Below are positions 826 to 59,000 of a DNA stretch of 64,000 nt, piece after piece (within the stretch, counting starts at the first letter, position 1; every line of letters begins with the position of its first letter). Position numbers and translations under genes: made by a program. A model generated the notes under the pieces. The model was not told the origin of the DNA, made no database searches, and saw only the letters and a list, made by a program, of their open reading frames with translations. The DNA comes from a virus, in IMG/VR virus record IMGVR_UViG_3300025669_000021, positions 1-64,000 of that record; one strand, given 5' to 3'.

Positions 826-2797
826 GGCAAGCCCTCTCGCTGGAATCATGGGAGCGATCCGCCCACCAGAGAAACTGGATGCAGATGAATGGGCAGAAGC
901 CAATCTCGTATTGTCTGAGCGCAATTCGATGATCGCCGGGCCACTCCGTCTGTCGGTGACACCCTATCTCCGGGGACCACTCAAATTCTTTTCTGATCCT
1001 AATGTGCGGAGAGTGTCTTTGTGTTGGGGTACGCAGTCAGGCAAGACGACCATGATCTTCTGTTGTATGGGTTACATCGTGGATTATGCGCCAGGGCCAA
1101 CCCTTATCGTTTACCCGACCATTGATATGGCGACTGCAGTGAGCAAGGATCGGTTGCAGCCCCTACTGATGGATTGCCCGGCTCTCAGGAAGCACATGAC
1201 TAAGAGCACAGATGATTTGCAATTGCTCTCTTACACACTCGATGCCATGACGGTCCGCTTCGGATGGTCGGGATCGTCGGTCAGTGTTAGGTCCCATCCC
1301 ATCAAATATCTGTTCAAAGATGAAAAGAGTGCCTTCACACCCGGAGCATCGAGGGCAGCAGACGAACGGACCAAGACTTTCTGGAACCATAAGATCGTGG
1401 AAGTGTCTACCCCGGAGAGGCAGGACGATCCGATGTGGCAGACCCTTGGCCTTGTCCCGAAGAGTGATGAGTTCCATGGGCAGGAGTTATGGCAGACCTA
1501 CAACTGGAAAACCAATGGATCAACGGCTGTTTACTTCTATGAGGTCAAATGCCCCAAATGCAAGAAGTGGATTCGCTTTGAATTTGAGGGAATCCGATGG
1601 GACAAGGATTGTGCAATCTCTGATCTGGATGGTCGGGGATGGTATGAGTGCCAGAAATGTGGAGGCACGATCACCGATGGCGACAAGTTGACGATGATCC
1701 AACCGCCAAATGCCGAATGGAGGAGTGAGAATCCTGGCGGCAAATGGGTGGCCTGTCATATGTCGAGTATCTATGCCCCATGGGATTCTTGCCGATTCGG
1801 TGCGATAGCAGCCCAATATCTGCGAGCAAAGATCACTCAAGACCCGGAAGTGATGAAGCGGTTTGTGAATGATTGGCTGGCGATGCCCTATGGCTTTGAA
1901 CAGAGTGGGCAAACTCTGGTCACAGAGAAGTCCATTGAATCGGTGATCACAGGATACCGGAGAAACCAGATCCCCGCCGATGTCAAGGTGTTGGTCTGTG
2001 GTGCAGATGTCGGTGAACACCAGACCCATTACACGATCCTCGGAGTCGGAGCAGGGTCGAATATCTATGTCATCGATTGGGGAGTGGTGTCACAACCGGC
2101 CGATTTATTTGAATTGATCAAGTCGACCACCTGGGACCATCCTGTTGGAATGAAGATCTCCATAAGTATCGGGGGCATTGACTCTCGATATCGCCGGGAA
2201 GAGATCGTGGCTCTCTGCAGAGCAAACCCGGTGATGAAGGCTGTGAGAGGAGAGGATAAGATAAAAGACCCGCAGCAGGTCGGACAGGTTCCGTGGAGGG
2301 CCACCGCCTTGGATCGGGATCATAGTGGCAAGGCCTTGCTCGGTTCCCTGGTCGGGTACAGAGTGAACACAATCTATTGGAAGCAGTTTTTGTATGGTCG
2401 GTTGCACGTGAATGTCGAGACAGGGCTGAGAGAGGATCAGGAAGCCCCCCTCCTCTTCCACCTTCCGCAAGATCGGGATGCTATCTTTGAAAGGCATATC
2501 CAATCAGAGCATGAAATCAGGGAACGTGCCAGGGGGACCGGGGAACTCAAGAGGAGATGGGCGAAGAGAGCCGGGTTCGATGCCAACCATTATCTCGATT
2601 GCCTAGTGTATGCCCTCTGTATGGGTCATGCTTTCAACCTATTCCAGTTGAGTGAGGAGAGCCCGGTGCTGCCCGGTGTGGCTCAACAGGCCGTCGATAT
2701 GGCGAAGGCAAAGGCGAAGAAAGCCCAAGAGAAGAAAAAGAAGCCGGATTCATTCGTGAGGAGGAAGGTTGACATCAAGAGACATAGGAAAAAGTGA
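779..2797 (+). CDS. Terminase large subunit, lambda GpA family
   Basis: ADEWAE...TPYLR, Walker A WGTQSGKT, Walker B YLFKDE, VSTP, CPKC/CQKC zinc motif, nuclease GADVG and NHYLDCLVYA; true start may be ~20-30 nt downstream. Confidence 0.93.
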   Translation: MEDYQSKSMLMLTKIEASPLAGIMGAIRPPEKLDADEWAEANLVLSERNSMIAGPLRLSVTPYLRGPLKFFSDPNVRRVSLCWGTQSGKTTMIFCCMGYIVDYAPGPTLIVYPTIDMATAVSKDRLQPLLMDCPALRKHMTKSTDDLQLLSYTLDAMTVRFGWSGSSVSVRSHPIKYLFKDEKSAFTPGASRAADERTKTFWNHKIVEVSTPERQDDPMWQTLGLVPKSDEFHGQELWQTYNWKTNGSTAVYFYEVKCPKCKKWIRFEFEGIRWDKDCAISDLDGRGWYECQKCGGTITDGDKLTMIQPPNAEWRSENPGGKWVACHMSSIYAPWDSCRFGAIAAQYLRAKITQDPEVMKRFVNDWLAMPYGFEQSGQTLVTEKSIESVITGYRRNQIPADVKVLVCGADVGEHQTHYTILGVGAGSNIYVIDWGVVSQPADLFELIKSTTWDHPVGMKISISIGGIDSRYRREEIVALCRANPVMKAVRGEDKIKDPQQVGQVPWRATALDRDHSGKALLGSLVGYRVNTIYWKQFLYGRLHVNVETGLREDQEAPLLFHLPQDRDAIFERHIQSEHEIRERARGTGELKRRWAKRAGFDANHYLDCLVYALCMGHAFNLFQLSEESPVLPGVAQQAVDMAKAKAKKAQEKKKKPDSFVRRKVDIKRHRKK

Positions 2798-11938: not shown

Positions 11939-12113
11939 AGTGAAGCGAACAGTGTCAGTGATGGAGAGGCTGAATTGTACCATCAGGCCGGAAGCCAGGA
12001 AGATGGCAATCGAGATAGCAAAGGCGAAGCACGAAGGGAACATCAGCGAAGCCATTGAAGAGATGATCCGAGACAAGCACAAGAAACTCAAGAAGGAGAA
12101 GGTGAAGAGATGA
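11931..12113 (+). CDS. Ribbon-helix-helix-like DNA-binding protein
   Basis: RLNCTI..EARKMAIEIAK...NISEAIEEMI pattern. Confidence 0.5.
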   Translation: MDEVKRTVSVMERLNCTIRPEARKMAIEIAKAKHEGNISEAIEEMIRDKHKKLKKEKVKR

Positions 12114-13018
12114 CCAGCGAAAACGAAACGAAAGAAGTCACCAAGACAGATAGTGGCACATCGCAGATCGTAATGATGGAGGAGCAGCTTTTACAGAGGA
12201 TCGAAGCTGTCGATCGCATGACGAAACTGATCAACACAAGAACAGACCCCAGGACAGATCTAAACATTGTGCAAGGTCAGCCATGCAGGAATGGGAATCT
12301 GGCAAAGAAGCTATATCGAATGTTCGGCGGGACATTTGCTTACATCAAAGACAATGAAGGCATCCCCATCGTGAGGCGAATTGATCAGGAAGATGGTCAT
12401 GGGAAATATTATTACTACGAAGCCTATGGTCGGTACACGCCTCCATTTGGCTATGGTGATGCAGTCGAGGCATCGGGGATGTTCTCTTCCAGAGATTCTT
12501 TCTTTGGCAAGGATCAAGATGGGTGGAAGCCATTGGATGAAGTGAATGAACAGGATGTCAGGCAAGCTGCTCAGACAGAGTGTTTCAAGAAATGCGTATT
12601 CACAGCCTGTGGCCTTGGTCGTCTAACCTTAGAGGAGTGTGAAGAGGCCGGGATGGATATGACCAAGTGCGAAGGATATCAGGGAAGGTCAAATGCCGGG
12701 AGCAAGGGCGGAAGCACGGACACGGAAGAGGATGGAGATGTGAGGGCAGAGATTGAGAAGATGTGCCGAGAGATGTTTGCCAATGGATTGAAGCATCCAG
12801 AGACAGGCAAGCCATTCAACTCTATCGATGATCTGTTGAAGGTGATCACGACGACAGAGACATGGAGGGGATGGGATAGCATCGCCCGGATCTCTGCAAA
12901 GGGATTGGGAATCACGTTGAAGGGAGTGCTCGCGGTTTATACCGAATGGCAGAAGAGTGCAGGGATCGATGATGACAATGTTCCTCTCGGTGAAGGGCCA
13001 GAAGGAGATGGCAAATGA
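12110..13018 (+). CDS. Putative single-strand annealing / recombination protein
   Basis: EASGMFSSRD...AAQTECFKKC...GL resembles Rad52/ERF-fold core; directly upstream of exonuclease. Confidence 0.5.
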   Translation: MTSENETKEVTKTDSGTSQIVMMEEQLLQRIEAVDRMTKLINTRTDPRTDLNIVQGQPCRNGNLAKKLYRMFGGTFAYIKDNEGIPIVRRIDQEDGHGKYYYYEAYGRYTPPFGYGDAVEASGMFSSRDSFFGKDQDGWKPLDEVNEQDVRQAAQTECFKKCVFTACGLGRLTLEECEEAGMDMTKCEGYQGRSNAGSKGGSTDTEEDGDVRAEIEKMCREMFANGLKHPETGKPFNSIDDLLKVITTTETWRGWDSIARISAKGLGITLKGVLAVYTEWQKSAGIDDDNVPLGEGPEGDGK

Positions 13019-15040: not shown

Positions 15041-15910
15041 ATGGACGAGCAACTATTTATGATGGGCATGGGTTTAAGCCTTGAAGAGAAAGAAGCGAAA
15101 GCCATTGCCAACTTCCAGAACTATGAGCCAGAGGCATTGAGGAGAGATCCTATCAATGGCTATTACCTCTGCGATAGCTATGGCAAGGATAGTGATACAA
15201 TATTGGACTTGGCTAAAAGGTCTGGGGTGAAGTTCTTGGCTCACCACAACCTAACAACGCTGGATGCGCCAGAGCTGATACATTTCGGGCGGAAGTTCCA
15301 TAAGGAAACTGTGGAGCATAAGCCGAAAGTGCCAATGCTTAAATTTATGGCCGAAGGTTATTATGGCCCACCTACGAGAATTGCTCGATGGTGCTGTGCT
15401 AAATACAAAGAATCGGCGGGCATGGAGATGGTGAAGGTGTTTGGTGTTCGGGCAGCAGAGTCGGCAAGAAGAAAGTCGAGATGGAAGATCTGGACTCCAT
15501 TCAACAAAAACAATGGAGCCGGGGAGCAGATTTCATGGGTGCTAAATCCAATCCTATTCTGGTCGGACGATGATATCTGGCAATACCACAAAAAGCATAA
15601 TGTGCCATATTGTTCTCTGTACGATGAAGGCTTCACCCGGTTGGGATGTATTGGATGCCCAATGGCTGATAAGCAAAGATATGAAGAGTTCGCAAGGTGG
15701 CCAAAATATGAGGCGGCATGGAAAAGAGCGATAACGCGGTTTTATGACAAATGGCATGGTGTGCCAAGGAATGATGGCAAGCCGCGGTGGTTTGATTGCC
15801 AAAGGTCTGATGGGTCATATATTACATCTGGCAACGATCTGTGGAAATGGTGGATGGAAGAGATGCCGACAGCCGAAGCGGAAGATGATTGCCAGATAGG
15901 GCTATTCTGA
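15041..15910 (+). CDS. PAPS-reductase-family protein
   Basis: SYGKDS PP-loop, RWCC..YKE, GVRAAESARR, RLGCIGCPM. Confidence 0.88.
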   Translation: MDEQLFMMGMGLSLEEKEAKAIANFQNYEPEALRRDPINGYYLCDSYGKDSDTILDLAKRSGVKFLAHHNLTTLDAPELIHFGRKFHKETVEHKPKVPMLKFMAEGYYGPPTRIARWCCAKYKESAGMEMVKVFGVRAAESARRKSRWKIWTPFNKNNGAGEQISWVLNPILFWSDDDIWQYHKKHNVPYCSLYDEGFTRLGCIGCPMADKQRYEEFARWPKYEAAWKRAITRFYDKWHGVPRNDGKPRWFDCQRSDGSYITSGNDLWKWWMEEMPTAEAEDDCQIGLF

Positions 15911-16314
15911 AAAAGAAAGATCAAGGAGAAGCGATAGCAATGAAGAAAATGAACAAAGAACGATTCAGACACAATGCAGTGTGTGGGCCGTGTGGGAAAC
16001 CGATCACATACATCAGTCTTGCAGAGAAGCCCCAGAGCGATCCGTGGTGTCCAGAATGTTTGGCATGGTACAAGAAGCAGAAAGAGGGCATGAGCAAGTG
16101 GCAATTCGGGGTGGAGTGGAAGGATGCATTTAAGATGCTAAGGCAACCTCTGAGGGGATGGGTGGCTTGTGTGGTGTGGTGGGACTTCTTGGCAGATGAT
16201 GTGACACTATTCGAACTGCTCCACTATTATCCCTATTCCCATTCGCATTCGATGGTGGATGCAGATCTAGCCCAGGGGTTACGGACAAGAGGCGAGGATG
16301 AATGCCCGATCTAA
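15889..16314 (+). CDS. Hypothetical Zn-finger protein
   Basis: CGPC...CPEC; likely start 15940. Confidence 0.55.
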   Translation: MPDRAILKKKDQGEAIAMKKMNKERFRHNAVCGPCGKPITYISLAEKPQSDPWCPECLAWYKKQKEGMSKWQFGVEWKDAFKMLRQPLRGWVACVVWWDFLADDVTLFELLHYYPYSHSHSMVDADLAQGLRTRGEDECPI

Positions 16315-16456
16315 GCTAGAGGCAGCGATGACTAATTTCATTCACTACAGTACGGAGGATGGAATGGACAAGTCTGATATTATAAGAGATATTTGTGACA
16401 TTATCTATGAGGCGTCACCGTTGGAGATTCTTCTTTTAAACGGCGAGATAGACTGA
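16298..16456 (+). CDS. Hypothetical 52-aa protein (not in ORF track)
   Basis: Manual translation MNARSKLEAAMTNFIHYSTEDGMDKSDIIRDICDIIYEASPLEILLLNGEID; ends at first array repeat. Confidence 0.55.
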   Translation: MNARSKLEAAMTNFIHYSTEDGMDKSDIIRDICDIIYEASPLEILLLNGEID

Positions 16457-16490
16457 TCGGATTGGTTCCGACAGATAAGGGGGTGAATCA

Positions 16491-16754
16491 GTGAACATCA
16501 AGCAACTGATTGTAGGAGAGATAGAACGACAAGGCATGGATGGTTTGTATTGTTCAGAGGGGCCATGTGGATGCCTAAAGGAAGATTTAGCACCTTGTGG
16601 GACAGAAGATTATTACGGCTGTTCCATTGGTAAGCGGATGGAATGGGCGGCAGACGAAAGCTGTGGTTGTGGCGCTTCGGGCATTGATCACTGGCATATC
16701 TGCGACCCCAATTACCCCAAACCGACAGATAAGGGGGTGAATACTCATGGCTAA
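16491..16754 (+). CDS. Cys-rich hypothetical cassette protein
   Basis: Repeat-supplied RBS; DGLYC...CGC..EDLAPC. Confidence 0.7.
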   Translation: MNIKQLIVGEIERQGMDGLYCSEGPCGCLKEDLAPCGTEDYYGCSIGKRMEWAADESCGCGASGIDHWHICDPNYPKPTDKGVNTHG

Positions 16755-17091
16755 AGCGGAGACATATAGCCCTTGTTGGGGATGTGAAAAATCAACCACT
16801 TCTTGCTGCTGTCCAGATCTTAAACAGTGGGTTGAGAAGAGAGACAATGAGGATGGACAAATGAAGTACGAATGGAAGCAACTCAGTCAATGGGATTGCC
16901 CAAAGCCAGAATATTACGTCGAGAGCAGGGAAGTCTCTACTGGGATGAGCAAGGCAACTTGTGTATTCCTGTTGGTCGAGTGCGTAGACCAAGGAAGGGG
17001 ATATATTAGAACCATCCCAATCACCAAGGCAGATGTGACAGGGAAGATGATTGATATTGCAAATACCGCAAACCGACAACAGGAGGGGTGA
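16747..17091 (+). CDS. Hypothetical cassette protein
   Basis: Flanked by repeats. Confidence 0.65.
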   Translation: MAKAETYSPCWGCEKSTTSCCCPDLKQWVEKRDNEDGQMKYEWKQLSQWDCPKPEYYVESREVSTGMSKATCVFLLVECVDQGRGYIRTIPITKADVTGKMIDIANTANRQQEG

Positions 17092-17295
17092 ATGATGTAC
17101 GATGATATATGCCGCAAGAAGGGGTGTGATCACTACATAGAGTGGGACTACTCCTTAGACTCGGAGACTCAGCCGTACCCCTGTGTGTCATGCAATCTCG
17201 TAGGCCAGTCACACCATATAGATATCATTCCTGATGCGTGTCCATTTATGGATGCGATCCGAGCGGTAACGACAGTAAACGCACTGAATAAATAG
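17092..17295 (+). CDS. Cys-rich hypothetical cassette protein
   Basis: Flanked by repeats. Confidence 0.65.
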   Translation: MMYDDICRKKGCDHYIEWDYSLDSETQPYPCVSCNLVGQSHHIDIIPDACPFMDAIRAVTTVNALNK

Positions 17296-17307
17296 AGGAG
17301 TTGAATA

Positions 17308-17538
17308 ATGGGATACGATGACAACCCAAGGATGGTAAGAGTTGATTTCTTCAAACCGTCAGGCAAGTGGTATAGCACGGAGGCCATAAAATGGCTTTCG
17401 TATGACGAGACTCAGATACACGATGCTTTCAGGGAAGCACTAAGGGCCGAACTTGGCGGGAGGTTGAGCGAGATGACGGCTGTATGCCTTCATCCATACC
17501 ATGTCAACGAACATCCGCTGATGATAAAAGAGTGGTAA
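17308..17538 (+). CDS. Hypothetical cassette protein
   Basis: MVRVDFFKPSGKWY...VCLHPYH; RBS GAGGAG. Confidence 0.7.
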   Translation: MGYDDNPRMVRVDFFKPSGKWYSTEAIKWLSYDETQIHDAFREALRAELGGRLSEMTAVCLHPYHVNEHPLMIKEW

Positions 17539-17560
17539 CGACAGGAGAGGGGGTGAATAA

Positions 17561-17728
17561 GTGAAGGTGAGATGCCCAAACGATGATGTATGCGGTGATG
17601 GTAAGGCGGGGGGATTCCATTGTGAACCACACGAACACACTGAGGAGTGCGATGTGAGCCATGGCGAGTTCGGGTTTTGCCCTCCTTGTGTAGTGATTCA
17701 GCCCAAACCGACAATAGGAGGTAAATAG
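17561..17728 (+). CDS. 55-aa Cys/His-rich cassette protein (not in ORF track)
   Basis: GTG start after repeat; MKVRCPNDDVCGDGKAGGFHCEPHEHTEECDVSHGEFGFCPPCVVIQPKPTIGGK. Confidence 0.65.
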   Translation: MKVRCPNDDVCGDGKAGGFHCEPHEHTEECDVSHGEFGFCPPCVVIQPKPTIGGK

Positions 17729-18478
17729 ATGAAAGCAATAACGGTAGCATGGTTTAGCGGAGGAACATCATCGGCAATCTCGACGAAGATGATGATTGAC
17801 GAAATAGACCATATCATATTTCAAGACATAGAAGATCACCACGAAGATACCATGCGCTTTGTGATGGACTGCCAAAAATGGTTTGGTAAGGAAATCGAGA
17901 TTCAGAAGTCACCTTACGGAAGCGTTAATAACGCCTGTAAAGGTGCCGCATTTGTGCGTGGCCCACACGGTGCGGCTTGCACTCGATTGTTAAAGATACG
18001 AGAACGCCAAATATGGGAAGCCCAAAACAGATTCTTTTGCAACTTTCGCTATATTTGGGGAATGGATGCGAATGAAACTACAAGAGCTGACAGAATTAGA
18101 TATGAGTCTATGCCAGATGAAGAACATATATTCCCCTTGCTGGAGAATGGTATCGACAAACCGGAAGCCCATGCGATTTTAGCCAGGGCAGGGATAAAGC
18201 GACACGCTATGTATGATATGGGATACCCAAACGCAAATTGTAGGGTATGCACAAAGGGCGGGATGGGATACATGAATAAATGCCGTGTAGATTTCCCTGA
18301 TTGGTTCTGGGCAAGGGCAAGAATGGAGAGAGAGGTCGGAGCGTCTTGCATCAACGGGGTATTCCTCGACGAGCTTGATCCCGATCGGGGCCGTGACTGC
18401 GAGATCATACTGCCAGAATGTGGAATGATGTGCGAGATCCTAGATTCACCCGCTAGTCCGACATTAGGAGGTAAATGA
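17729..18478 (+). CDS. PAPS-reductase-like / adenine-nucleotide alpha-hydrolase protein
   Basis: AWFSGGTSSA, CTRLLK, MYDMGYPNANCRVCTKGG. Confidence 0.8.
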   Translation: MKAITVAWFSGGTSSAISTKMMIDEIDHIIFQDIEDHHEDTMRFVMDCQKWFGKEIEIQKSPYGSVNNACKGAAFVRGPHGAACTRLLKIRERQIWEAQNRFFCNFRYIWGMDANETTRADRIRYESMPDEEHIFPLLENGIDKPEAHAILARAGIKRHAMYDMGYPNANCRVCTKGGMGYMNKCRVDFPDWFWARARMEREVGASCINGVFLDELDPDRGRDCEIILPECGMMCEILDSPASPTLGGK

Positions 18479-18479
18479 T

Positions 18480-18755
18480 ATGTCTTCAACAGACAAAATC
18501 AAAAAGCATCTTTTCGATATGACTGCGGAGGAATTAACAGAGTCCTTCAACCAGTACCTTAAAGAAATTGAAGACGCTTACGGTGACATACCGAAGGATA
18601 AAGATTGTGCCAAATGCCCACATTCAACTAACGGTCAGTGTTCGGGAATGGTGACGCCGTGTTTTGATATTTGTTCTGGCGATGCGTTTGGTGGAATGTG
18701 TGCTAGTGATTCACCCGCTAGTCCGACAGTAAAGAGTGAATCGAGGGAATTATGA
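18480..18755 (+). CDS. Cys-rich hypothetical cassette protein
   Basis: Flanked by identical 21-bp repeats. Confidence 0.65.
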   Translation: MSSTDKIKKHLFDMTAEELTESFNQYLKEIEDAYGDIPKDKDCAKCPHSTNGQCSGMVTPCFDICSGDAFGGMCASDSPASPTVKSESREL

Positions 18756-19069
18756 AATTAGTCAGCATTGAGAGTCCGTATGCGGGGAATGTGGAAGAGA
18801 ACGAGAAGTACGCCAGAGAGTGCATGAGGGATAGCCTGTTACGCGGTGAGGCACCATACGCCAGTCATTTGATATACACTCAGCGGGGAATCTTAGACGA
18901 TACCAAGCCGGATGAGCGCAAGCTAGGTATGGAAGCTGGCAAAAAGTGGGAGATCCACGCAGAGCTTACTGCGGTTTATACCGATCTTGGAATATCAGGC
19001 GGCATGGAGTGGGGCGTCGATCAGGCTAGATCCGTAGGGCGGCCAGTTGAGTACAGGAGTATTCGATGA
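18752..19069 (+). CDS. DUF4406/DUF7768-like (nucleoside deoxyribosyltransferase-like fold) protein
   Basis: IESPYAG, PYASHLIY, ERKLG, ISGGM. Confidence 0.7.
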   Translation: MKLVSIESPYAGNVEENEKYARECMRDSLLRGEAPYASHLIYTQRGILDDTKPDERKLGMEAGKKWEIHAELTAVYTDLGISGGMEWGVDQARSVGRPVEYRSIR

Positions 19070-19746
19070 AACCATATTATGAAGCGGCGGGGATTACGAT
19101 TTACCACGGGGACTGTCGGGAAGTATTGCCGACTCTTGACAAGGTTGATCTTGTTTTGACTGATCCGCCGTATGGGATTGGGAAGTCGGGGCAAAAGCGT
19201 TCTAGATGCAAGAACCCAAAACATGACCGCAAGCACTATGACGACTTGGGGTGGGATAAGGAAATACCACCGCTAATGTGTTTCGATTTGATGAGACTAA
19301 AATCAGACCACCAGATTATATGGGGCGGCAATTATTTCGCCCACTATCTGCAGCCTTCCATGGGGTGGCTGTTCTGGGACAAAGGACAAGACCTTAACCA
19401 GGCAGACGGAGAGCTTGCATGGACGAGCTTTGACAAGGCACTACGGCGCAAGGTTCTCAACAGTTCGGCCATTGCCTCCGACGGGGCGGTGCATCCTACA
19501 CAGAAACCCTTGGCAATAATCAAGTGGTCTATTGAATACGCCGAGGGCCACATGAAGTACCCCCTCTCAATCCTCGACCCCTTCATGGGCAGCGGCACAA
19601 CACTCAGAGCCGCCAAGGATCTGAACCGCCAAGCCATAGGCATTGAGCTTGAAGAGAAGTATTGTGAGATAGCGGCCAACCGTTTGAGTCAGGATGTTCT
19701 AGGACTATTCGATTCACCCGCTAGTCCGACATTAAGGAGTAAATGA
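19066..19746 (+). CDS. N4-cytosine/N6-adenine DNA methyltransferase (beta class)
   Basis: LTDPPYG, HPTQKP, LDPFMGSGTT, GIELEEKYC. Confidence 0.93.
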   Translation: MKPYYEAAGITIYHGDCREVLPTLDKVDLVLTDPPYGIGKSGQKRSRCKNPKHDRKHYDDLGWDKEIPPLMCFDLMRLKSDHQIIWGGNYFAHYLQPSMGWLFWDKGQDLNQADGELAWTSFDKALRRKVLNSSAIASDGAVHPTQKPLAIIKWSIEYAEGHMKYPLSILDPFMGSGTTLRAAKDLNRQAIGIELEEKYCEIAANRLSQDVLGLFDSPASPTLRSK

Positions 19747-19997
19747 TGGCAAGCAATAAGCACATAGAACTGGTAGAAGCAGTCAATAATTCCAAGACGA
19801 TTGAGGAGCATAAGAAAGCTAAAATATACTTGCAAGGCTTTCGGGCAGGAGTAAGTAATTGCGACTACTACCTAGACCTGTGTGGATGTGATATGTACTA
19901 CATCGACAAAGGCATAGACCGACCGATGTGCGGCGGAGTGTGGCTAGATTGGAAGCCAAGTGATTCACCCTCCACTACGACAGTAGGAGGTAAATAG
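19743..19997 (+). CDS. Hypothetical cassette protein
   Basis: Flanked by repeats. Confidence 0.65.
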   Translation: MMASNKHIELVEAVNNSKTIEEHKKAKIYLQGFRAGVSNCDYYLDLCGCDMYYIDKGIDRPMCGGVWLDWKPSDSPSTTTVGGK

Positions 19998-20001
19998 ACA
20001 G

Positions 20002-21717
20002 ATGAAAGACAGAATGACCAAAATGCTATTCTTGACCACCCTTTTTGTGGTCCCGTCCGTGTTCTCTTCTCAGACTGGAGACATCGGGCTACTGCCGCAA
20101 CTGATGATGTTGTGTATGTGCAGCCTATTCCTTCTGTTCTTTTTGGACTTGAAGGGGCGTAAGAGGAGCCTATCCGCGGTTCTCCTGATATTCTTGGCCT
20201 TCCTGGCGGTGAACATCATATCCGTCAAGAACGCGATCAACGGCCAGGAGTGGCTGTTCTCTATCGCTCGGCTATCGATACTGGCAACCTTCTTCTTCAT
20301 CACCCACTCTATTGTTACCAGAAGAGCAGGACTTAGGTTTGATATTGCCGGGGCGATTGCTCTGTGTGCCGGGGTCCATGCCATAATAGGCATACTTCAA
20401 TACTACGGAGTCAAGATCCCCTTCATTCCTGTTGCTACTGCCGGCAGTGTCTCGACCATGGCAAACAAGAACCTATTTGCCTCGTTCCTGTTCCTCTGCA
20501 GCCCCTTTGTCCTATACCGGTGCATCGTGGCCTGGAGAAGTAAAATACTGCTCTTTGGTGGAATACTGGTGTTGTGTGGACTGGCTATCTTTGTGTCTCA
20601 GTGCAAAGCCGTATGGCTGGGCATGGCAGTCGGTTCCATTGCCGTGCTGATCACCCTTCTTTTCAACCGTAGATGGAAAGCGGCTACGCTCCTGGCGATG
20701 GTAGGGGTGGTCGGCTTGCTGTGCGTCTTCTTCCTATTCAAGGACATCGTTATCAATCAACTCTCCATCGTCAATTTGCATTGGTCTATCAAGCCTCGGC
20801 TGGCTATTTGGTCACAGACAATAGAACTGATATCGGATCATCCAGTTTTCGGGACCGGATCGGGCAACTGGAAGATAGCCTTTCCTGGTTACGGTTGGGA
20901 TGCTGCAGGAATGACGCATTGCATACGGCCCCACAATGATTTCCTTTGGGTCATGGCAGAGACGGGTATCGTCGGGCTTCTGTTGTACGCCTCTCTATTC
21001 TTGGTGTCCATCCGTCAGGCGGTGAAGCAAGCCAAGGATTGTCTGTTTGGTCGGGAATGTTGGAGCTATTGCCTGATCTATGGCCTTGTAGGGTTCATGG
21101 TTGTGTCTTTCTTCGACTTCCCATACGAGCGGATCCCTCACATGATGTTGTTCATCGTGATTCTAGCGTCTTCAATGTATCCCTTCTCTAACTATGCGGA
21201 TTTCAGTAAGAGGGAACATGAGGGCAAGACCTACTCTATTCCTGGCGCTTCTCTCACGGTAAGCATCATCGGAATGATCATCTGTCTTTGCGGCGGTCTT
21301 CTTATCTCGCGCATGGAGTCTGAGATTGCAGCCATGGATGGTGTTAGACTGTTCCAGCGGGGCAAGTTCGATGAATCAAAGGCGTGTATGCTCAGGGCCC
21401 GTACCCCGTTCTACACTATTGACCCATACACGGCGCCAGTTGATTGGCACCTTGGGAATATTGCTGTGGTAGAGGGTGACAACGAGGCGGCTTTCTACCT
21501 CTACCAGGAGGCGGCTTTCTATCACCCCTCCCATATCCATGTTCTATCTAACCTCGGGGCAATGTACTATCGTTTTGGGTTCCTAGATGCAGCTTTGGAG
21601 ACAACAGAAAGGGCGCTCCAACTCGCACCCGAGTTTGAAGCACCCCTTCTCAACCTGCCAATTATCAAGAAAGCTCTACAGAGCCAAGCCCAGGAAGATC
21701 ATCCCGCCCAGGACTAG
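20002..21717 (+). CDS. O-antigen ligase / O-oligosaccharyltransferase (Wzy_C) family membrane protein with C-terminal TPR
   Basis: ~12 hydrophobic segments, STMANKN, RLAIW...HPVFGTG.GN, PHNDFL...ETGIVG, TPR-like tail (LSNLGAMY...ALQLAP). Confidence 0.85.
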   Translation: MKDRMTKMLFLTTLFVVPSVFSSQTGDIGLLPQLMMLCMCSLFLLFFLDLKGRKRSLSAVLLIFLAFLAVNIISVKNAINGQEWLFSIARLSILATFFFITHSIVTRRAGLRFDIAGAIALCAGVHAIIGILQYYGVKIPFIPVATAGSVSTMANKNLFASFLFLCSPFVLYRCIVAWRSKILLFGGILVLCGLAIFVSQCKAVWLGMAVGSIAVLITLLFNRRWKAATLLAMVGVVGLLCVFFLFKDIVINQLSIVNLHWSIKPRLAIWSQTIELISDHPVFGTGSGNWKIAFPGYGWDAAGMTHCIRPHNDFLWVMAETGIVGLLLYASLFLVSIRQAVKQAKDCLFGRECWSYCLIYGLVGFMVVSFFDFPYERIPHMMLFIVILASSMYPFSNYADFSKREHEGKTYSIPGASLTVSIIGMIICLCGGLLISRMESEIAAMDGVRLFQRGKFDESKACMLRARTPFYTIDPYTAPVDWHLGNIAVVEGDNEAAFYLYQEAAFYHPSHIHVLSNLGAMYYRFGFLDAALETTERALQLAPEFEAPLLNLPIIKKALQSQAQEDHPAQD

Positions 21718-21752
21718 GAAGAAGAGCGCCGTCATTATGGCTTCGGAGGCTT

Positions 21753-21953
21753 TCATGTCTTAGGCGTGAAAGCCTTCTCCCTTTCTTCCGGTGAGAGTCC
21801 GTGCACAAGCTTCTCGTGTAGGACTACCACATCATCCGGTGCCTCTATCCCTACCTTGAAGTTGCCCGTCTTCTTATCGTGCTCAAGAGCCGTTATTGTT
21901 ATATCGGGCCCAATGTATATACGACTGTTTGGATACATCCCTAGAATTAGCAT
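21753..21953 (-). CDS. CsrA/RsmA-like protein (divergent)
   Basis: MLILG....RIYIGPDITITAL...FKVGIEAPDDVVVLHEKL aligns with the CsrA fold; start at 21953. Confidence 0.75.
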   Translation of the reverse strand: MLILGMYPNSRIYIGPDITITALEHDKKTGNFKVGIEAPDDVVVLHEKLVHGLSPEEREKAFTPKT

Positions 21954-35015: not shown

Positions 35016-36581
35016 ATGGCTAAAGACTTCGAATTTGATGACGATGAAGACAGGGAAATCGTCTATGTGGCAGAGCAAACTGCTACTGAATTCCATGCTG
35101 ATAATAGCTTTATCAGGGGAATAAAGGGGCCTATTGGCTCTGGGAAGTCTGTAATGTGCGTGTGGGAACTGTTCTGCAGGGCCCAAGAGCAAAAGGCGGT
35201 CAGGGGGAAACGTAGGACCAAGTGGGCCATAATCAGGAACACTTATCCGGAACTGCAGGATACAACCCTGAATACATTCCTGGAATGGATACCCGAGGGG
35301 GAGTTCGAAGGATACTCCCTCCGGGTAAACAGGACTGCCCCGATCCATGCCTATCTCAAGATGAACCTTCCTGACGGAACGGAAGTTCAAGCGGAATTCA
35401 TCTTCCTTGCGCTAGACAATGATGATGATGTCAAGAAGCTCAAATCACTGGATTTGACCGGCGCCTGGATCAATGAGGCTTGTGAAATCATATGGAATAT
35501 CTTCACGATGGCAAGGGGCCGCACCCGTCGATTCCCCTCCAAGAGGGATGGTGGGTACACCTGGGCCGGTGTCATCATGGACACCAACCCGCCAGATACA
35601 GAGCATTGGTGGCATAACCTTGCAGAGGTCGAAAGGCCGCTAAATCACCGATTCTGGTCACAGCCGCCAGCCATTCTTCCCATGCCAAAGAAAAAGAAGA
35701 GCGATCCAACCATCTATATGCCCAACAGGGGGCAGGATCCCCGGTACTCCGCGGCAGAGAATGTAAACAACCAAAACGCTGGATTTAGCTACTGGCTAGA
35801 TCTTACGGCCGGTGTAGGGGAAGACTGGATAAATGTGTTTCTTCTTGGATTCTACGGATCGACCATGGACGGAAAGCCGGTATATTCAGAGTATAAGGAT
35901 GATGTCCACTGCTCTGCAGAGGTATTAGAGCCTTTCAGGGGTCTACCCCTCGTCTTGGGCTTTGACTTCGGCCTTACGCCATGTGTTGCCATCATGCAGC
36001 TATCCCCGAAGGGTGTCCTACGTGTAATCGATGAGATATGCTCCGGTCACGGTGATTTCGATGATATGGGGATACGCCAGTTTGCTACATCTGCAGTAAA
36101 ACCCCATCTTAACAATGTCTACGGGGGAATGGTGATCAAGAGCGTTGGAGATCCTGCCGGTAACTCCCGGGCCCAGGCAAACGACGAATTGACCTGTCTG
36201 CTAGAGCTACAGGCTGCAGGAATACCAACAGAAATGGCCCTAACCAACAACTTCCTTACTCGGCGCGAGGCGGTTGCCGGCTTCCTAAACCGTATGGTAG
36301 ACGGAAAAGCAGGGTTTCAGCTATCCCCGAATTGCAAGGTTCTCAGGAAGGGATTCACGCAAAAGTACAAATATCGAAGGATTAGGACGTCTTTGGGGGA
36401 GAAATTCACCACTGAGCCTGATAAGTTGCATCCGTGGTCGGACGTCCATGACGGCCTACAGTACGGAGCAATGTATCTCAGCGGCGGCGGCATTGCCGGT
36501 TCCAGCACCCCGGCGCTACCATCAAGCGGTTCCCAGACAAGACGAAATGTCAAAGTCATTAGCTCTAAAGGCTGGTCGTAA
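35016..36581 (+). CDS. Terminase large subunit (second, non-GpA type)
   Basis: GPIGSGKS, IIRNTYPEL, LTGAWINEA, MDTNPP, GFDFGLTP, GDPAG, SDVHDGLQY; directly upstream of portal. Confidence 0.93.
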   Translation: MAKDFEFDDDEDREIVYVAEQTATEFHADNSFIRGIKGPIGSGKSVMCVWELFCRAQEQKAVRGKRRTKWAIIRNTYPELQDTTLNTFLEWIPEGEFEGYSLRVNRTAPIHAYLKMNLPDGTEVQAEFIFLALDNDDDVKKLKSLDLTGAWINEACEIIWNIFTMARGRTRRFPSKRDGGYTWAGVIMDTNPPDTEHWWHNLAEVERPLNHRFWSQPPAILPMPKKKKSDPTIYMPNRGQDPRYSAAENVNNQNAGFSYWLDLTAGVGEDWINVFLLGFYGSTMDGKPVYSEYKDDVHCSAEVLEPFRGLPLVLGFDFGLTPCVAIMQLSPKGVLRVIDEICSGHGDFDDMGIRQFATSAVKPHLNNVYGGMVIKSVGDPAGNSRAQANDELTCLLELQAAGIPTEMALTNNFLTRREAVAGFLNRMVDGKAGFQLSPNCKVLRKGFTQKYKYRRIRTSLGEKFTTEPDKLHPWSDVHDGLQYGAMYLSGGGIAGSSTPALPSSGSQTRRNVKVISSKGWS

Positions 36582-53007: not shown

Positions 53008-56000
53008 ATGGCTAATGGCTTACTTGATCCTGATCAAGAACTCGCGTTCATAAAATCACTTGATGATGAAACGGCCCCTGTCGACGGGGCTGGTGCCTTC
53101 CGTCCTCCAGAAGTGGATGACCCTCCAGAGGAAGAAACTCTTGACGGGAAGAAGGAGCTATTTTGGCTAGAGAACCTTGACCAGGAGATCCGCCAGGAAA
53201 GTGTCAAGGAATTGAAGGCTAAGGGACAGACCGCAATCCTCGGTAAATCTAAGGCTCGTATGCCATTCGGGGAGAAGTTACGCCGAAGCTTTAGCGGTGA
53301 GCCTTTCGGTGCAGACGTTACTCCTGTAGAAGGGGCAATAGCTTATCTTTCTCCGGTAGCTAGGACAAACAAGCGTCTTGAACTCAATGAGATCCGTGAA
53401 AAGCTTTCAAGAACTGCAGGAGCCGAAAGCGTAGAAGATGAACTAGCACTATACTCCAAGAACTTCGAAGGATGGTCGGACGGTGATCTATTCCAATATG
53501 TGCACGGATCAACAGAAATACCACCTGACAGGGTAATTGATAGAGAGCAGACCATACGTACCAGCTTGGAACGCGATAAGCAGATGCTAGAGAGGCTTAC
53601 AGCCTTCGACCAAGAGCTAGAAGAGCGTGACGGTCCATTGTCAGAGAACGCTCCTACAGTAATGAAGCTGAATAATCTGCTAGAGGATGGTGTATTTGGC
53701 GCTATCGACATGATCCCGTATATGATCAAGATGGCTGCTGGCCCTGTTGGCGTATTCGTTGAGGCTATGACCCAGTTTGATGAACGTCTGCATGGAGAGG
53801 GCAAGATCAATGAAGATGGCCGATACGAGATCACCAAGGAACAGGCCGGTGTCTTTGAGGCAGCATGGAAGAGTATTTTGTCTGCTGGGGCTGAATATTA
53901 CATAGAAAAGAAGGTCGGTTCACAGTTAAAGCTTTTAGGAGGAAAGAAGGGCGCTCAGAGATTCCTTAGTGCTGGAATGCAAGAGTCCATAGAAAAGTTG
54001 TCAAAGAAGATGGTTGGCAAGTCCTTTGGCAAAACTGGGACGAAACTATCAGAACTGACCGGTGCCAAGATCCTCCAGGGATTCAATCCAGCAAACTTGT
54101 TTGAGGAGATAATCGTTGAAGAAGGGCTCCAGGCCGTATGGGATGCCGCCTGGAACCTAGATAACATGGTCGATCCTGAGAATCCAGACAGGAAGCTAGA
54201 CTTTGCAGAGAGACAAGCACTGGCCCTATCGTCGTTTGCGAAGTCTATCCCAGAGATGGCGATTAGCTTCTCTCTGTTCGGTATTGGCGGCCAGGGCGCT
54301 AATAAACTATCAAGTATAAGAACCCGTAGCGCCCAGAAGAAGTATCTCACAGAGCTTGGATTAGAGCCAGAGCGTCAGAAACAGATAATGGACGAGAAAG
54401 ACCCCAAGAATCGTGGCGAGATGCTTCTACAGGAAATACTCAGCAGACACCTACGGGCCGAAGCGTTTGGCGTACCATTCCCGTTTGCCCAGGACAAGGA
54501 GTCATTGAATAACCGATTAGAAGATGCTGAGAAGCTATTCAAATTCGGCACTGAGAAGGCTCCACCCAGCGTAATGGATCAGTTGAGCGTCAGAGCTAAA
54601 CTAGCCACGATTAAAGCTGGATTGCCGGCAGAAGGGAAAGAGGGTGAGCAACCAGCAGATCAACCATCAAAAACACCTATAGAACCCCCGGCGCCAAAGG
54701 ATGAAACGCCTATTCCTCCCGAGGATCAACCACCTATCGAGGAAGATGATGAAACACCAGAGACGGGCCCAAAGGGTCAGGATCTTGTTGATACCTTTAC
54801 CGATGAGAACGGCATAATCTTTGAGCGTTTTGAAGGTCCGGACGGTACGTCTACGATGATCCAGCGTGATCCAGAGAACAAGGATCCAATACAGGTCATA
54901 AAGGGCGATAAGGACGTCATCCTCAAGCGTTACACGGAGCAGATCGACAAGATTAAGAAGATTGAGGAGAAGCCTCCGGTAGATACAAAAGCAGTCAAAG
55001 CTAAGTACCTTGATGACTATGTATCGTACCTGATGGACGATTCTCAGGATAAACCACCAGCAGAGCCAGACATCAGCGAAATGTCTCTCAACAATTTAAG
55101 GCGTCAGGCAAAAGAGATAGCCCTGGATCGCAAGCGCAAAGATGAGAAGCCGCCCGAAGACAAGAAGCCCCCCAAGGAAAAGAAGACGGCCACTGACGAG
55201 ATAGAAGACATAGATATTGATGACTTGGACGATCTATTAGATGAAGCTGACGAGGGAGAGGCCCCCGCCGAGACTCCCACGCCGCCGCCACCTAGAGATG
55301 ATCGCCCACCTGTAGACGATAATAGACCGCCTGTTGATCGCCCACCGGCAGAGGCTGGTGAGGTCAGCAATGATAACGTCGACAAGCTGAAAGACCTATT
55401 CCCTGGCCTTGGGGCACCGACACAGTTAGGTTCACCAGCCGGCGCCGAGAAAGAACCAGCTTTCAGCAAGGAAAAGTATGCTGCAGCCACTCCTGTATTC
55501 GTATCCAGTATAAAGGATATGTCTGCTGGCGGGAAAACACTGAAAGACTTCCTCTCCTGGGCAATCAAGAGCTTTGGCTCCGACATCAAACCATACCTGA
55601 AACAGTTCGTGGTCGACGTTAAAGCTGGCAAGATCAACCTAAAGGAAGAAGATAAGGCCGATACTCCTCCCCCGCCGCCGCCAGGGCCCCAGGACAATAC
55701 TACGCGCATAAGGGCACTTATCCTGTCCGATGCTTCAATGCAGCAGAAAAGTGCTGACATGAAGAAGATGGCCCGGGAACTGGACATATCTGATAAGGCC
55801 GTTCAAGAGATGGTTGAGGCTGAATTGGTCAGAATGGCGAGGAAGATCATTGTAGCCAATGACACCAAGCCAGGAAATACAGATGCCCAGACAATGAAGG
55901 ATCTGATTGCCCTGTACGAGAAACAGCCCATCTTCTCAGCCAGGAGTAGCGGTAGCGTCTCCAGACAGGCTTATTCCACCCCTCTCCCCCTGGCGTTTGC

Positions 56001-59000
56001 CATTGAGCGTATGATCGACGCCAAGAACGGATCCAAGGTATATGAGCCCACGGCCGGGATGGGCGCCCTAGTGATAGATGTCGACCCCAAGAAGGTAGAT
56101 GTCAATGAGATCGATTCTGTCCGTGTGCAGGAACTCAAGAAGAACGGCTATAATCAAGTCACCAGCAATGACGCCTCACTGCAGCCCCCCGCGGATCGCC
56201 TCAAGTCCTATGACAAGGTGATAATGAATCCACCTTTCGGGACACGTAAAGACGGGGCAATGCGTTGGAATGGTTTCCGGATTACCCAGCTTGACCACGA
56301 AATCGCTCTCAGAACCCTCGACCAGATGACAGATAACGGTCAGGCGGCGATCATCCTCGGTGCATCACTTCATCAATCAGATGAGCTTACCCGTAAGGAT
56401 AGGGCTCTTTTGAACGCCATAATGAATAACTTCAACGTGGTGGACAATTTTGAGGTCAGTGGAGATCTCTACCGCAAGCAGGGCGCCAGTTTCCCTACAC
56501 GGGTTTTGATCATATCAGGCAGAAAACCAGCAACAGAAGAGCAGCTTGCCCCCAAAAAGGTCGACCGGCTCAATACTTGGCGCGAAATAGAAGACAGAAT
56601 AGAGGGAAATAAGAATGAATCTAAAAGAATCAGAGACATTGTGGAGTCCGAGCGACGATCGAAGACTACTGACGGTCCTGGAGAAGGGGGAGAACCCCCC
56701 CAAGGCCCTCGCAGGATTCCTGAGTCTACAGGCGAACCTCCTATCCCAACTGATACAGGAGTCGACAGAGGAGGAGATACAGGCGGCTCAGAAGATGCTG
56801 GGGGATCTTCCGACGAGCGCACTGATGGGACTAGACACAGCAAACGTAAAAAGCCCCCACTTCCCGAAACAATTTCTGAATCTGAACATAGAAAGCGGAG
56901 AGAATCCGATAGCGGAGTGGAGAAAGGACGCAGAGGAGGCACTACCGCAAGAGACAAGCATGATTTCGTCCGAAGAGGCGAACCAAGAGATCACAGAGTT
57001 GACCCTCTCAAGGTTCCTGGAGAGAATGATATAGTAAACATAGATGAGTTTACATCTACCTATGTTCCATTCTCTCGGGCCCCCGGGCTAGATACTGTCT
57101 CCCCTCGATACATGGCATTGCCGATGTTTAGGGCCATGAAGGAATTGACTGATCAAGTAGGTGATCTTGACTATTACCTAGTTGACAAGCTTGGCTATGA
57201 TAACGTCCAGCACCTATGGGATGGTGACAATGAAAGATCGACGGCCGGTCTAGCTGCAGAGCAGATTGATTCGATCGCCCAGACCATATACCAGATAGAG
57301 GCCAACAAGGCCGGTATGATCGTTGCCGATGAGACGGGTATTGGTAAAGGACGCCAAGCTGCAGCCCTGATGCGCTACGCTATAAGGGAAGGCAAGATGC
57401 CTGTCTTCTTTACTGCTACCCCAAAGCTCTTCTCTGATATGTACGGAGATCTGCAGGACATTGACACTACACTATCCCCTCTTCTGGTTGGTTCTCAGGG
57501 CAAAGCGGAAGTGAAGGATGTTGACGATAAGGTAATAGTTGCCTACGAGGCGAAGCAAAAGCAGATAATGAAGCGGTATCTCGACGGAGATGAGGACGCG
57601 CTCAAAGAGTTTGACTCTATCTTTGCCACATATTCCCAGATAAATGCTGCCGACAACATCCAGCAACGCTTCTTCCAGGCACTGTCCGAAAGAGACGATG
57701 TATTTTTCATCATGGATGAGTCTCACAAGGGCGCCGGTCAAACATCTACCACGGGAGTCTACCTTCGCGGTGGAGAAACAGAAAAGAAAGACCCCCAGAC
57801 AAAAGAGACGATTAAGACAGAATATCCTGGCGCTCTGCGCTCGGACGGTGTTTCGGGGGTAACGTACCTATCTGCTACATACGCCAAGAACCCACAGGCC
57901 ATGGGATTGTACTTCTGGACAGACATATCCAAAGCCGCCAATACACCAGAAGATCTGGAATTCATATTTGAAAACGGTGGTGTCCCTATTCAGCAGGTAT
58001 CGTCGGCCGCTCTTGCAGAAACTGGACAGCTTGTCCGTAGGGAGAAGTCCTTTGACGGTGTTAAGTTTGAGCAGGAAGACATCAAAATGGACGAGCGTGA
58101 ACGCGCAGAGCTTATTGCTGATGTTGACGAAGTGACGTCTATTCTCGGGGATATTGTCGATTACAGCAATAGGGCGATAGATGTAATGGGCACTCTTCCT
58201 GACTATCTGGTGAAGAAGAGGAACAGCGTACAGACCCAACTCCAGACAACGACCTTTGCCAGTGTCGTGCACAACAAGATTGCCCAGTTAATGTATTCCA
58301 TGAAGCTGAAATATGCCGTGGAAGAGGCTATTGCAACGCATAAGCGCGGAGAAAAGCCCGTTCTCGCAGTTGTCAATACGATGGAGTCCTTCCTAGAGGA
58401 CTATGTAAGGAAGAACCATCTTTCCGAGGGTGATACCGTTGACGTAAACTTTGCTGATACCTTGAAGACCGCTCTCGATCGTACAATGAGGGCGTCAGTC
58501 GAGGGCCCTACTGGTGACAATGAGCATATTGAGTTTACGCCAGAACAGTTGGGAATGAGAAGCGAGTATGATGAACTAATGGCCGACATAGATGCTTTAG
58601 AGTTAGATCTCCCTGCATCACCGATCGACTGGTTGAGACATGAGCTAGAAAAGGCTGATATATCAACCGGTGAATTGACCGGCCGCTCCCTAATGTTGGA
58701 GTATCAGGACGATGGAACGGCAATACTTCGCTCCAGGACACCAAAGGAACGGGCAGACAAGAATGGTCCTACCAACGCGTTTAACCGCGGCGATATAGAT
58801 GCCATCATCCTGAATAAGTCTGGCAGTACCGGTATCTCTCTCCACGCTGCAGAGAAGTTTGATGATCATAAGAAACGCAGAATGATCGTTGTCGACGCAC
58901 ATCCTGACATCAACGAGTTTAAGCAAATCTTGGGACGTATCAAGCGGTCAGGCATGATAGAGCCAGACGAGAACGGTGTAGCGGCCGCGTCCTATATCAT

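Follow-up and report, generated by a model that had tools for sequence, protein, structure and literature searches.

Cassette-level mosaicism at a short translational gene-junction repeat in an uncultivated temperate phage

Introduction

What is the short sequence that recurs between a run of mostly small, unrelated genes in an uncultivated phage, and is it a joint at which these genes are exchanged? The genes in question lie at positions 16298-21717 of the IMG/VR virus record IMGVR_UViG_3300025669_000021. An earlier note, drawn up from the first 64,000 nt of that record (the window), had described them as an integron-like cassette array delimited by a hairpin repeat of about 35 nt, with no integrase in view, and had proposed that each gene and its repeat form an exchangeable unit. 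The source record is 101,415 nt long with 50% G+C and is rated 97% complete; the whole genome is labelled G000, and coordinates above 64,000 fall outside the window.

Phage accessory genes for anti-defence, DNA modification and host surface modification turn over fast, by routes known in detail for few model groups. The window codes for terminase, portal and tail genes, as well as a Cas4/RecB-like exonuclease, and these tailed-phage genes together with a tyrosine recombinase gene at 65261-66388 identify a temperate tailed phage. Here we describe the repeat motif, its placement at gene junctions, and a cassette-level mosaicism among related contigs whose breakpoints fall in the repeat.

Results

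A conserved element at the gene junctions

The genes between 16298 and 21717 are closely packed and all lie on the plus strand. As the earlier note had counted, ten copies of the repeat occupy ten of eleven consecutive junctions, which span 16298-20002, and the sole junction without a copy is the ATGA overlap at 19066/19069 (Table 1). The literal pattern given for the repeat does not hold: it has no matches even when three mismatches are allowed, because spacings differ between copies. A gapped form, CGACA-N6-11-T[GA]AAT, was searched for on both strands of the whole 101,415-nt genome and gave 13 matches on the plus strand and one on the minus strand; Markov simulations gave 1.5 ± 1.2 per strand. 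The 3′ end of the recombinase gene contains a fourteenth copy (66372), whose spacing is shorter than the gapped form allows. In all, the genome has 14 same-strand copies, namely the ten in the window and those at 66372, 76127, 76514 and 76936, the last three forming a second, small array outside the window; an additional, degenerate copy lies at 99158. Scored with a position weight matrix, the copies reach at least 26 bits and all other plus-strand sites at most 7.9 bits. All 14 lie on the coding strand and end 0-19 nt 5′ of a start codon, and they are restricted to blocks of small genes, plus the junction 3′ of the integrase (tyrosine recombinase) gene. Two 21-mers had been reported as recurring without change: GATTCACCCGCTAGTCCGACA is indeed identical at 18443, 18708 and 19711, and CCGACAGATAAGGGGGTGAAT at 16468 and 16722, with a further occurrence at 76126, outside the window.

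We aligned 26 distinct copies, drawn both from the genome and from metagenome contigs. In the alignment no copy departs from CGAC or T.AAT, and the fifth base of the core hardly varies; the unaligned sequences all contain CGACA. Roughly 10 of the 26 have a left arm, GAT(T/C)C, the inverse of a GAATC with which the right side often ends. Inverted arms had been ascribed to the repeat as a whole. Some copies have them, including the perfect GATTCAC/GTGAATC pair at 18708-18742, but only about 40% of copies do.

A Shine-Dalgarno sequence (GGAGG, GGGGG or GGAG) fills the stretch from the core to T[GA]AAT. The commonest type, TAAGGGGGTGA, could form an 11-nt pairing, with one G-U, with the canonical 16S rRNA 3′ end, although the 3′ end of the host may differ; the anti-Shine-Dalgarno sequence of the canonical end is well established. 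Phage genes without the repeat have ordinary, shorter Shine-Dalgarno sequences. The T[GA]A that follows is a stop codon, and several copies form a direct TGA-ATG or TAA-ATG stop-start pair. For 37 of 42 copy-by-frame combinations, the frame entering at the core meets a stop no more than 25 nt upstream or 12 nt downstream of the next start; by our own estimate, random sequence would give that placement at a rate of about 44%. The 3′ arm had been taken for the Shine-Dalgarno sequence of the next gene, and the right half does supply one, but the copy at 17270 has none inside it. That copy retains CGACA-N10-TGAAT though its Shine-Dalgarno sequence is lost.

Most upstream open reading frames (ORFs) that read through the core, 10 of 11, do so in the xCG-ACA frame, so unrelated proteins acquire similar short tails. 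A shared peptide motif (the DSPASPT... tails) was considered as the conserved entity and rejected: the DNA is conserved even where the upstream ORF ends at the core or short of it, as happens in three cases, and copy 17074 is read in a different frame, which puts the constraint on nucleic acid, not peptide.

The hairpin of the earlier note was not recovered, and a conserved RNA hairpin was rejected. The ten window copies fold no better than shuffled sequence (z from -1.3 to +1.0), 30 distinct copies give a mean z of -0.28 with one of the 30 below -2, and where the same right half has a different left flank the pairing vanishes. Between 11000 and 26000 we found 18 promoter-like sites, a total at the shuffled-sequence level, none of them at a repeat copy, and no terminator-like site coincides with any repeat copy. 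Resemblance to T3/T7 promoters led to one further candidate, a T7-like promoter, which was also rejected: there was no single-subunit RNA polymerase candidate, a weak result as the control was unmatched too, there was no sigma-70 region 2, and the 3564-aa ORF encodes a polyvalent methyltransferase/helicase protein and no virion RNA polymerase. The arms were considered as GANTC methylation sites and rejected, GANTC being neither rare nor abundant genome-wide (381 observed, 385 expected). GATC occurs 801 times in the whole genome, about twice the expectation from base composition.

Cassette-level mosaicism in related contigs

When metagenomes were scanned with the pattern CCGACANNNAAGGGGGTGAAT, 18 contigs matched, and several of them contain 2-6 copies of the motif family. 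The metagenomes from which the variant contigs came have the contig prefixes Ga0222658, Ga0222667, Ga0307928 and Ga0075116. Five contigs are 98-100% identical to the phage up to the repeat core and unrelated beyond it (Table 1), and their homology blocks have six ends, every one of them at a repeat. At three junctions (G000 17078, 76518 and 76125) homology stops at the CGACA core. The junction in L133 has copy 3 as its left side and, as its right side, a copy found in L119, L122 and L124, and the two parental forms have only ACCGACA, 7 nt, in common.

The left and right flanks of 50 copies were then clustered. The 3′ end of one two-gene cassette, X, serves as the left flank of four different downstream genes, and five downstream genes each occur with two different upstream neighbours. 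Segment maps place X after gene 16747 in L133 and before it in L119, so that the order is reversed. In L122 and L135, X also stands before gene 76149, which argues for one cassette pool serving both arrays, and the 3′ end of X is present twice in L122. Several junctions recur across datasets (L17-R10 in L122 and L135, L16-R16 in three contigs). A further array of this motif family is carried by L127, and its cassettes lack homologues in the phage genome.

These data support the idea of exchangeable gene units, in that five contigs break at repeats, flanks recombine and order varies. Each unit also retains its own Shine-Dalgarno sequence and start, in keeping with the suggestion that it arrives ready to translate. 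Fixed gene content and order in relatives had been named as an outcome that would speak for a purely regulatory motif; the relatives differ in cassette order and neighbours.

Three contigs, L124, L128 and L135, share a hairpin variant of the repeat: after CGACA comes a GCGGGT-loop-ACCCGC hairpin, behind which stands a separate Shine-Dalgarno sequence. The mutual divergence of these contigs begins only after the hairpin. For exchanges between two A-type copies, the breakpoint cannot be placed within the 20-21 identical nt.

The second gene of cassette X encodes a Gly/Ser/Asp/Tyr-rich repeat protein (GSGDGYG...) whose repeat number varies among contigs. Across these repeats two reading frames are open.

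The recombinase and the integron question

The tyrosine recombinase is generic and Xer-like and is the only PF00589 match in the genome. It lies 45 kb from the main array, just outside the window. Its score on TIGR02249, the integron integrase model, is 28.1 bits against a cut-off of 265, and it also scores far under the XerC/D cut-offs. Its stop codon overlaps the start of the next gene by way of repeat copy 66372, and a GGGGAATTTCCCC palindrome precedes that copy. No serine recombinase, Y1 HUH transposase or HNH match was found in the genome. The absence of an integrase from view therefore holds for an IntI-type enzyme, but not for tyrosine recombinases in general once the sequence beyond the window is included. 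The aligned copies lack attC boxes (RYYYAAC/GTTRRRY ends), as had been stated. Membership of the integron family was not supported: IntI and attC boxes are absent, the repeat does not fold stably, and it is located on the 5′ side of its gene.

Cargo genes and genome context

As described earlier, the cargo proteins are mutually unrelated, except for their repeat-encoded tails. Seven small proteins encoded within 16491-19997 belong to no Pfam family, and most of them are Cys-rich. The PAPS-reductase-like cassette protein has its last 11 residues encoded by the repeat, and these are absent from all 44 homologues inspected. A paralog is encoded by a backbone gene at 15041-15910, which has no repeat. 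The 105-aa protein encoded at 18752-19069 had been called DUF4406-like; it matches DUF7768 and a nucleoside deoxyribosyltransferase-like PHROG, and DUF4406 is not among its Pfam matches. The GC content of the cassettes is homogeneous and uninformative.

Relatives of the phage are scarce in the collections that were searched. It has no match among deposited phage genomes, and neither the portal protein nor the PAPS-reductase-like protein of the array has relatives in IMG/VR; the upstream PAPS-reductase paralog has only distant ones (36-43% identity), from which the motif is absent. A motif scan of GTDB genomes gave six matches, the chance level, and pointed to neither a prophage nor a host, and a scan of IMG/VR gave 25, all single and again at chance level.

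The 302-aa protein encoded 5′ of the exonuclease gene gave sub-threshold leads to Sak/Rad52-type proteins, and its single-sequence fold was unusable (pLDDT 37). It is possibly a single-strand annealing protein, which we treat as a lead only.

Table 1. Positions of repeat copies, cassettes, homologous contig segments and other features. Positions are those of the genome unless a contig is named.
Feature	Position	Strand	Remarks
Repeat copy 1	16460-16488	+	Core 16469-16473; 2 nt 5′ of GTG 16491; upstream ORF ends just before copy
Repeat copy 2	16709-16742	+	Core 16723; before ATG 16747; 21-mer common to copy 1 and 76127 copy
Repeat copy 3	17060-17093	+	Core 17074; stop TGA directly followed by ATG 17092; L133 breakpoint, 100% identity to 17078
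Repeat copy 4	17261-17289	+	Core 17270; no internal Shine-Dalgarno; GAGGAG 3′ of copy, before ATG 17308
Repeat copy 5	17530-17558	+	Core 17539; TAA of upstream gene abuts core; next start GTG 17561
Repeat copy 6	17695-17726	+	Core 17709; left arm GATTCAG; before ATG 17729
Repeat copy 7	18443-18476	+	Core 18459; left arm GATTCACC; codes tail DSPASPTLGGK of upstream protein
Repeat copy 8	18708-18742	+	Core 18724; perfect 7-nt pair GATTCAC/GTGAATC; second Shine-Dalgarno before ATG 18752
Repeat copy 9	19711-19744	+	Core 19727; methyltransferase TGA overlaps ATG 19743
Repeat copy 10	19962-19995	+	Core 19978; before ATG 20002
Five single-gene cassettes	16491-17728	+	16491-16754, 16747-17091, 17092-17295, 17308-17538, 17561-17728; 55-114 aa, four Cys-rich (not 17308), no Pfam family
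Cassette, PAPS-reductase-like protein	17729-18478	+	PF01507, phrog_424
Cassette, Cys-rich protein	18480-18755	+	91 aa, repeat-encoded tail
Two-gene cassette	18752-19746	+	No internal repeat; DUF7768/deoxyribosyltransferase-like 18752-19069, N6/N4 DNA methyltransferase 19066-19746
Cassette, 84-aa protein	19743-19997	+	No assigned function
Last cassette, membrane protein	20002-21717	+	Wzy_C (O-antigen ligase/polymerase-type) domain and TPR repeats
Terminator-like hairpin	21745-21777		15-pair stem, between array and convergent gene block
Divergent CsrA-family gene	21753-21953	-	About 66 aa from internal Met; convergent with array end
Contig segment, L133 1-4145	12934-17078		100% (BLAST); beyond, unrelated DNA; ends on last base of copy 3 core
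Contig segment, L124 1-1866	74653-76518		99.7% (BLAST); beyond, unrelated DNA; ends on core 76514-76518
Contig segment, L128 1-773	75746-76518		99.4% (BLAST); beyond, unrelated DNA; end point as L124
Contig segment, L135 490-883	76125-76518		98.2% (BLAST); one two-gene cassette, foreign DNA both sides
Contig segment, L122 1490-3859	76125-78494		99.9% (BLAST); upstream, foreign DNA
Cassette X, second gene	L119:887-1256; L122:1142-1517; L133:4548-4833; L135 (reverse complement) 888-1179		
Hairpin variant of repeat	L124:1862-1895; L128:769-800; L135 (reverse complement) ~1541-1575; L127:101-135		
Large-terminase-like genes (two)	779-2797; 35016-36581		Both on one contig
302-aa protein	12110-13018		5′ of Cas4/RecB-like exonuclease gene; sub-threshold Sak/Rad52-type leads in ESM Atlas
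Polyvalent protein	53008-63702		3564 aa; N6 methyltransferase, Strawberry-notch-type helicase and LPD38 domains
Tyrosine recombinase gene	65261-66388; L012:898-2025		Generic Xer-like; only PF00589 match

Discussion

We favour, with moderate confidence, the reading of the repeat as a portable gene-junction module that is at once a translational-coupling adapter and the joint of cassette exchange by short-homology recombination. In such a module the left half, which often includes a GAT(T/C)C arm, would encode the end of the upstream protein, an invariant CGACA would stand in the centre, and the right half would be a translation signal only, with a Shine-Dalgarno sequence, a T(G/A)A stop and then a start 0-19 nt on. 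Because translation wholly explains the right half, we read it as a coupling adapter for any upstream gene: the module would terminate whatever is translated upstream and restart translation on the gene downstream. A cassette carries its own right half, and would therefore be translatable on arrival. The copies would then act as joints for deletion, insertion, duplication and reordering of cassettes among co-circulating variants of a temperate phage, with two hyperplastic regions (16.3-21.7 kb and 76.1-77.1 kb) drawing on one cassette pool. The simplest mechanism would be recombination on the short common sequence, selection retaining in-register products only. Phage or host functions may suffice for this, with no dedicated recombinase, and the exonuclease and possible annealing protein could serve phage recombination. 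CGACA itself may have a role beyond that of a common exchange point.

Several observations weigh against this reading. Translation signals do not account for the strict invariance of CGACA. Ordinary homologous recombination works poorly on 6-7 nt of identity, which gives scope for a dedicated enzyme, as do the invariance of the core, the independent assortment of the halves on either side of it and the one exchange confined to 7 nt. Not every breakpoint is at the core, some falling on the right edge of the repeat or past the hairpin variant, and the scan pattern required an A-type right half, which biases the sample of junctions to A-type copies. A copy of gene 17308, 91% identical, is present in the otherwise unrelated contig L118 (5756-5984, minus strand) with no flanking repeat, and the homology runs exactly from start codon to stop codon, so selection for gene boundaries can act without the motif. 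The absence of the repeat from homologous cargo genes elsewhere had been proposed as a sign of a purely regulatory motif, and here the result went that way, since none of 80 loci of PAPS-reductase-like homologues in other phages (about 1 Mb of sequence) is flanked by the repeat, and the L118 gene likewise has none; both findings also count against the integron analogy.

Might the exchange be directed by a phage enzyme that cuts and rejoins at CGACA, perhaps guided by the GAT(T/C)C...GAATC arms? A dedicated site-specific system of this kind, an integron analogue, would fit the presence of CGACA in all copies and the independent assortment of both flanking halves, the three junctions at which homology ends at the core, the exchange confined to 7 nt, the common orientation of the copies and the arm seen in a minority of them; the gene of the only recognisable candidate enzyme, the tyrosine recombinase, even ends in repeat copy 66372. 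We nevertheless consider it unlikely. Conserved inverted binding arms are not found right around the core, where the left flanks are heterogeneous; the recombinase falls far short of the integron-integrase and XerC/D models, and the genome offers no other match among the enzyme classes searched for; other breakpoints lie outside the core; and no circular cassette contig was seen among the contigs inspected. Doubtful for us, too, is the fuller form of this idea, a phage-borne cassette system with its own site-specific chemistry at CGACA (by the Xer-like or another enzyme), two integron-like arrays, a ribosome-binding site and three-frame stop/restart adapter for each cassette, and possibly CsrA-like translational control.

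CsrA proteins repress translation at sites overlapping Shine-Dalgarno sequences, and these sites are ACA...GGA motifs. The CsrA-like protein, which scores 37.7 bits on PF02599 (cut-off 27) and whose gene runs convergently towards the end of the array, is thus an obvious candidate trans-factor for a different explanation, in which CGACA and the Shine-Dalgarno sequence form a purely regulatory, start-associated motif, a translational operator or RNA-processing site, and the mosaicism is ordinary phage mosaicism. The variant at 17270, with the bipartite motif kept and the Shine-Dalgarno sequence gone, suggests that the motif matters in itself, and placement and single orientation match the start-associated repeats of Cluster K mycobacteriophages (PMC3203893). 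We find this explanation improbable, given that six of six homology-block ends fall at repeats and that the combinatorial reuse of flanks goes far beyond the incidental. The repeat shows no conserved RNA structure and does not qualify as a CsrA site, for GGA is absent from 3 of the 14 copies and the phage protein has His at the equivalent of Arg44, a residue essential for RNA binding by CsrA (PMC7366521), and GMY in place of the N-terminal TRR segment. We retain the protein as a candidate regulator of the array, a lead only.

Chimeric metagenome assembly, with the repeat as the point of joining, is very hard to credit as the source of the variant contigs: they are short (1.3-7 kb) and several end near a repeat, as at branch points of an assembly graph, but the parental forms in L133 share 7 nt, too short for an assembler to join, both sides extend for hundreds of nucleotides, and identical junctions occur in contigs of different datasets, so that the mosaic is real.

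The portable junction module can be set beside several known systems. With integrons the locus shares co-oriented arrays of unrelated, mostly small genes with a repeated element between them, variation of order and content among close relatives, and the possibility of cassette duplication. It differs in having neither IntI nor attC boxes nor an attC-type fold; no attI is recognisable, and no sequence definition of attI or the Pc promoter can be carried over to arrays beyond the integron classes already described. Its repeat stands 5′ of its gene, where it supplies the ribosome-binding site and also codes for the tail of the protein encoded upstream.

Stoperators are DNA sites that bind a repressor and occur throughout the genome, as many short asymmetric sequences in or near short intergenic gaps and in one orientation relative to transcription. 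The phage repeat is likewise asymmetric, short and of single orientation; unlike it, stoperators have no tie to a Shine-Dalgarno sequence and start or to cassette exchange. Stoperators of Cluster A mycobacteriophages are named in PMC3203893.

The same paper (Pope et al. 2011) describes the start-associated sequences (SAS) and extended SAS (ESAS) of Cluster K mycobacteriophages. Like the phage repeat, these as described there are asymmetric, lie a few nucleotides 5′ of starts in one orientation, contain a Shine-Dalgarno core, are limited to non-structural genes and often include the upstream stop codon; in both, an inverted-repeat extension is present on about half of the copies and does not act like a hairpin in RNA. 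The sequences are unrelated (GGGATAGGAGCCC in Cluster K, CGACA...T(G/A)AAT here), and the Cluster K repeats are tied to gene families conserved across phages. A role as recombination joint is not claimed in the passages of PMC3203893 consulted, whereas cassette exchange at the phage repeat is observed here.

PeSLs of T4-type phages are about 100 bp long and combine a sigma-70 promoter with a terminator stem-loop, and mini-circles have been demonstrated for them (Arbiol et al. 2010, PMC2839356; Comeau et al. 2014, PMC4122927). Both PeSLs and the phage repeat precede ORFans in hyperplastic regions, end in a Shine-Dalgarno sequence and start codon, show breakpoints of indels or replacements within the motif between close relatives, and move a gene together with its own expression signals. 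The phage repeat is a purely translational element of about 30-35 nt with five invariant core nucleotides, and part of it lies within the upstream coding region; it has no promoter or terminator and is therefore not a member of the PeSL family. On these comparisons, PeSL cassettes and Cluster K SAS are its closest known analogues.

Should exchange at CGACA prove to be enzyme-directed, the locus would represent a new kind of gene-capture system. The repeat could also be used as a ready-made, frame-independent stop/restart adapter for synthetic operons. For phage biology, the contigs offer natural evidence at nucleotide level that a translational junction of about 30 nt is a joint of cassette exchange in an uncultivated temperate phage, in which cassettes have changed order and passed from one array to the other, with 98-100% identity in the surrounding genome. 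This links start-associated sequences with modular shuffling of the PeSL type, two phenomena previously kept separate, and offers a testable idea of why start-associated repeats exist.

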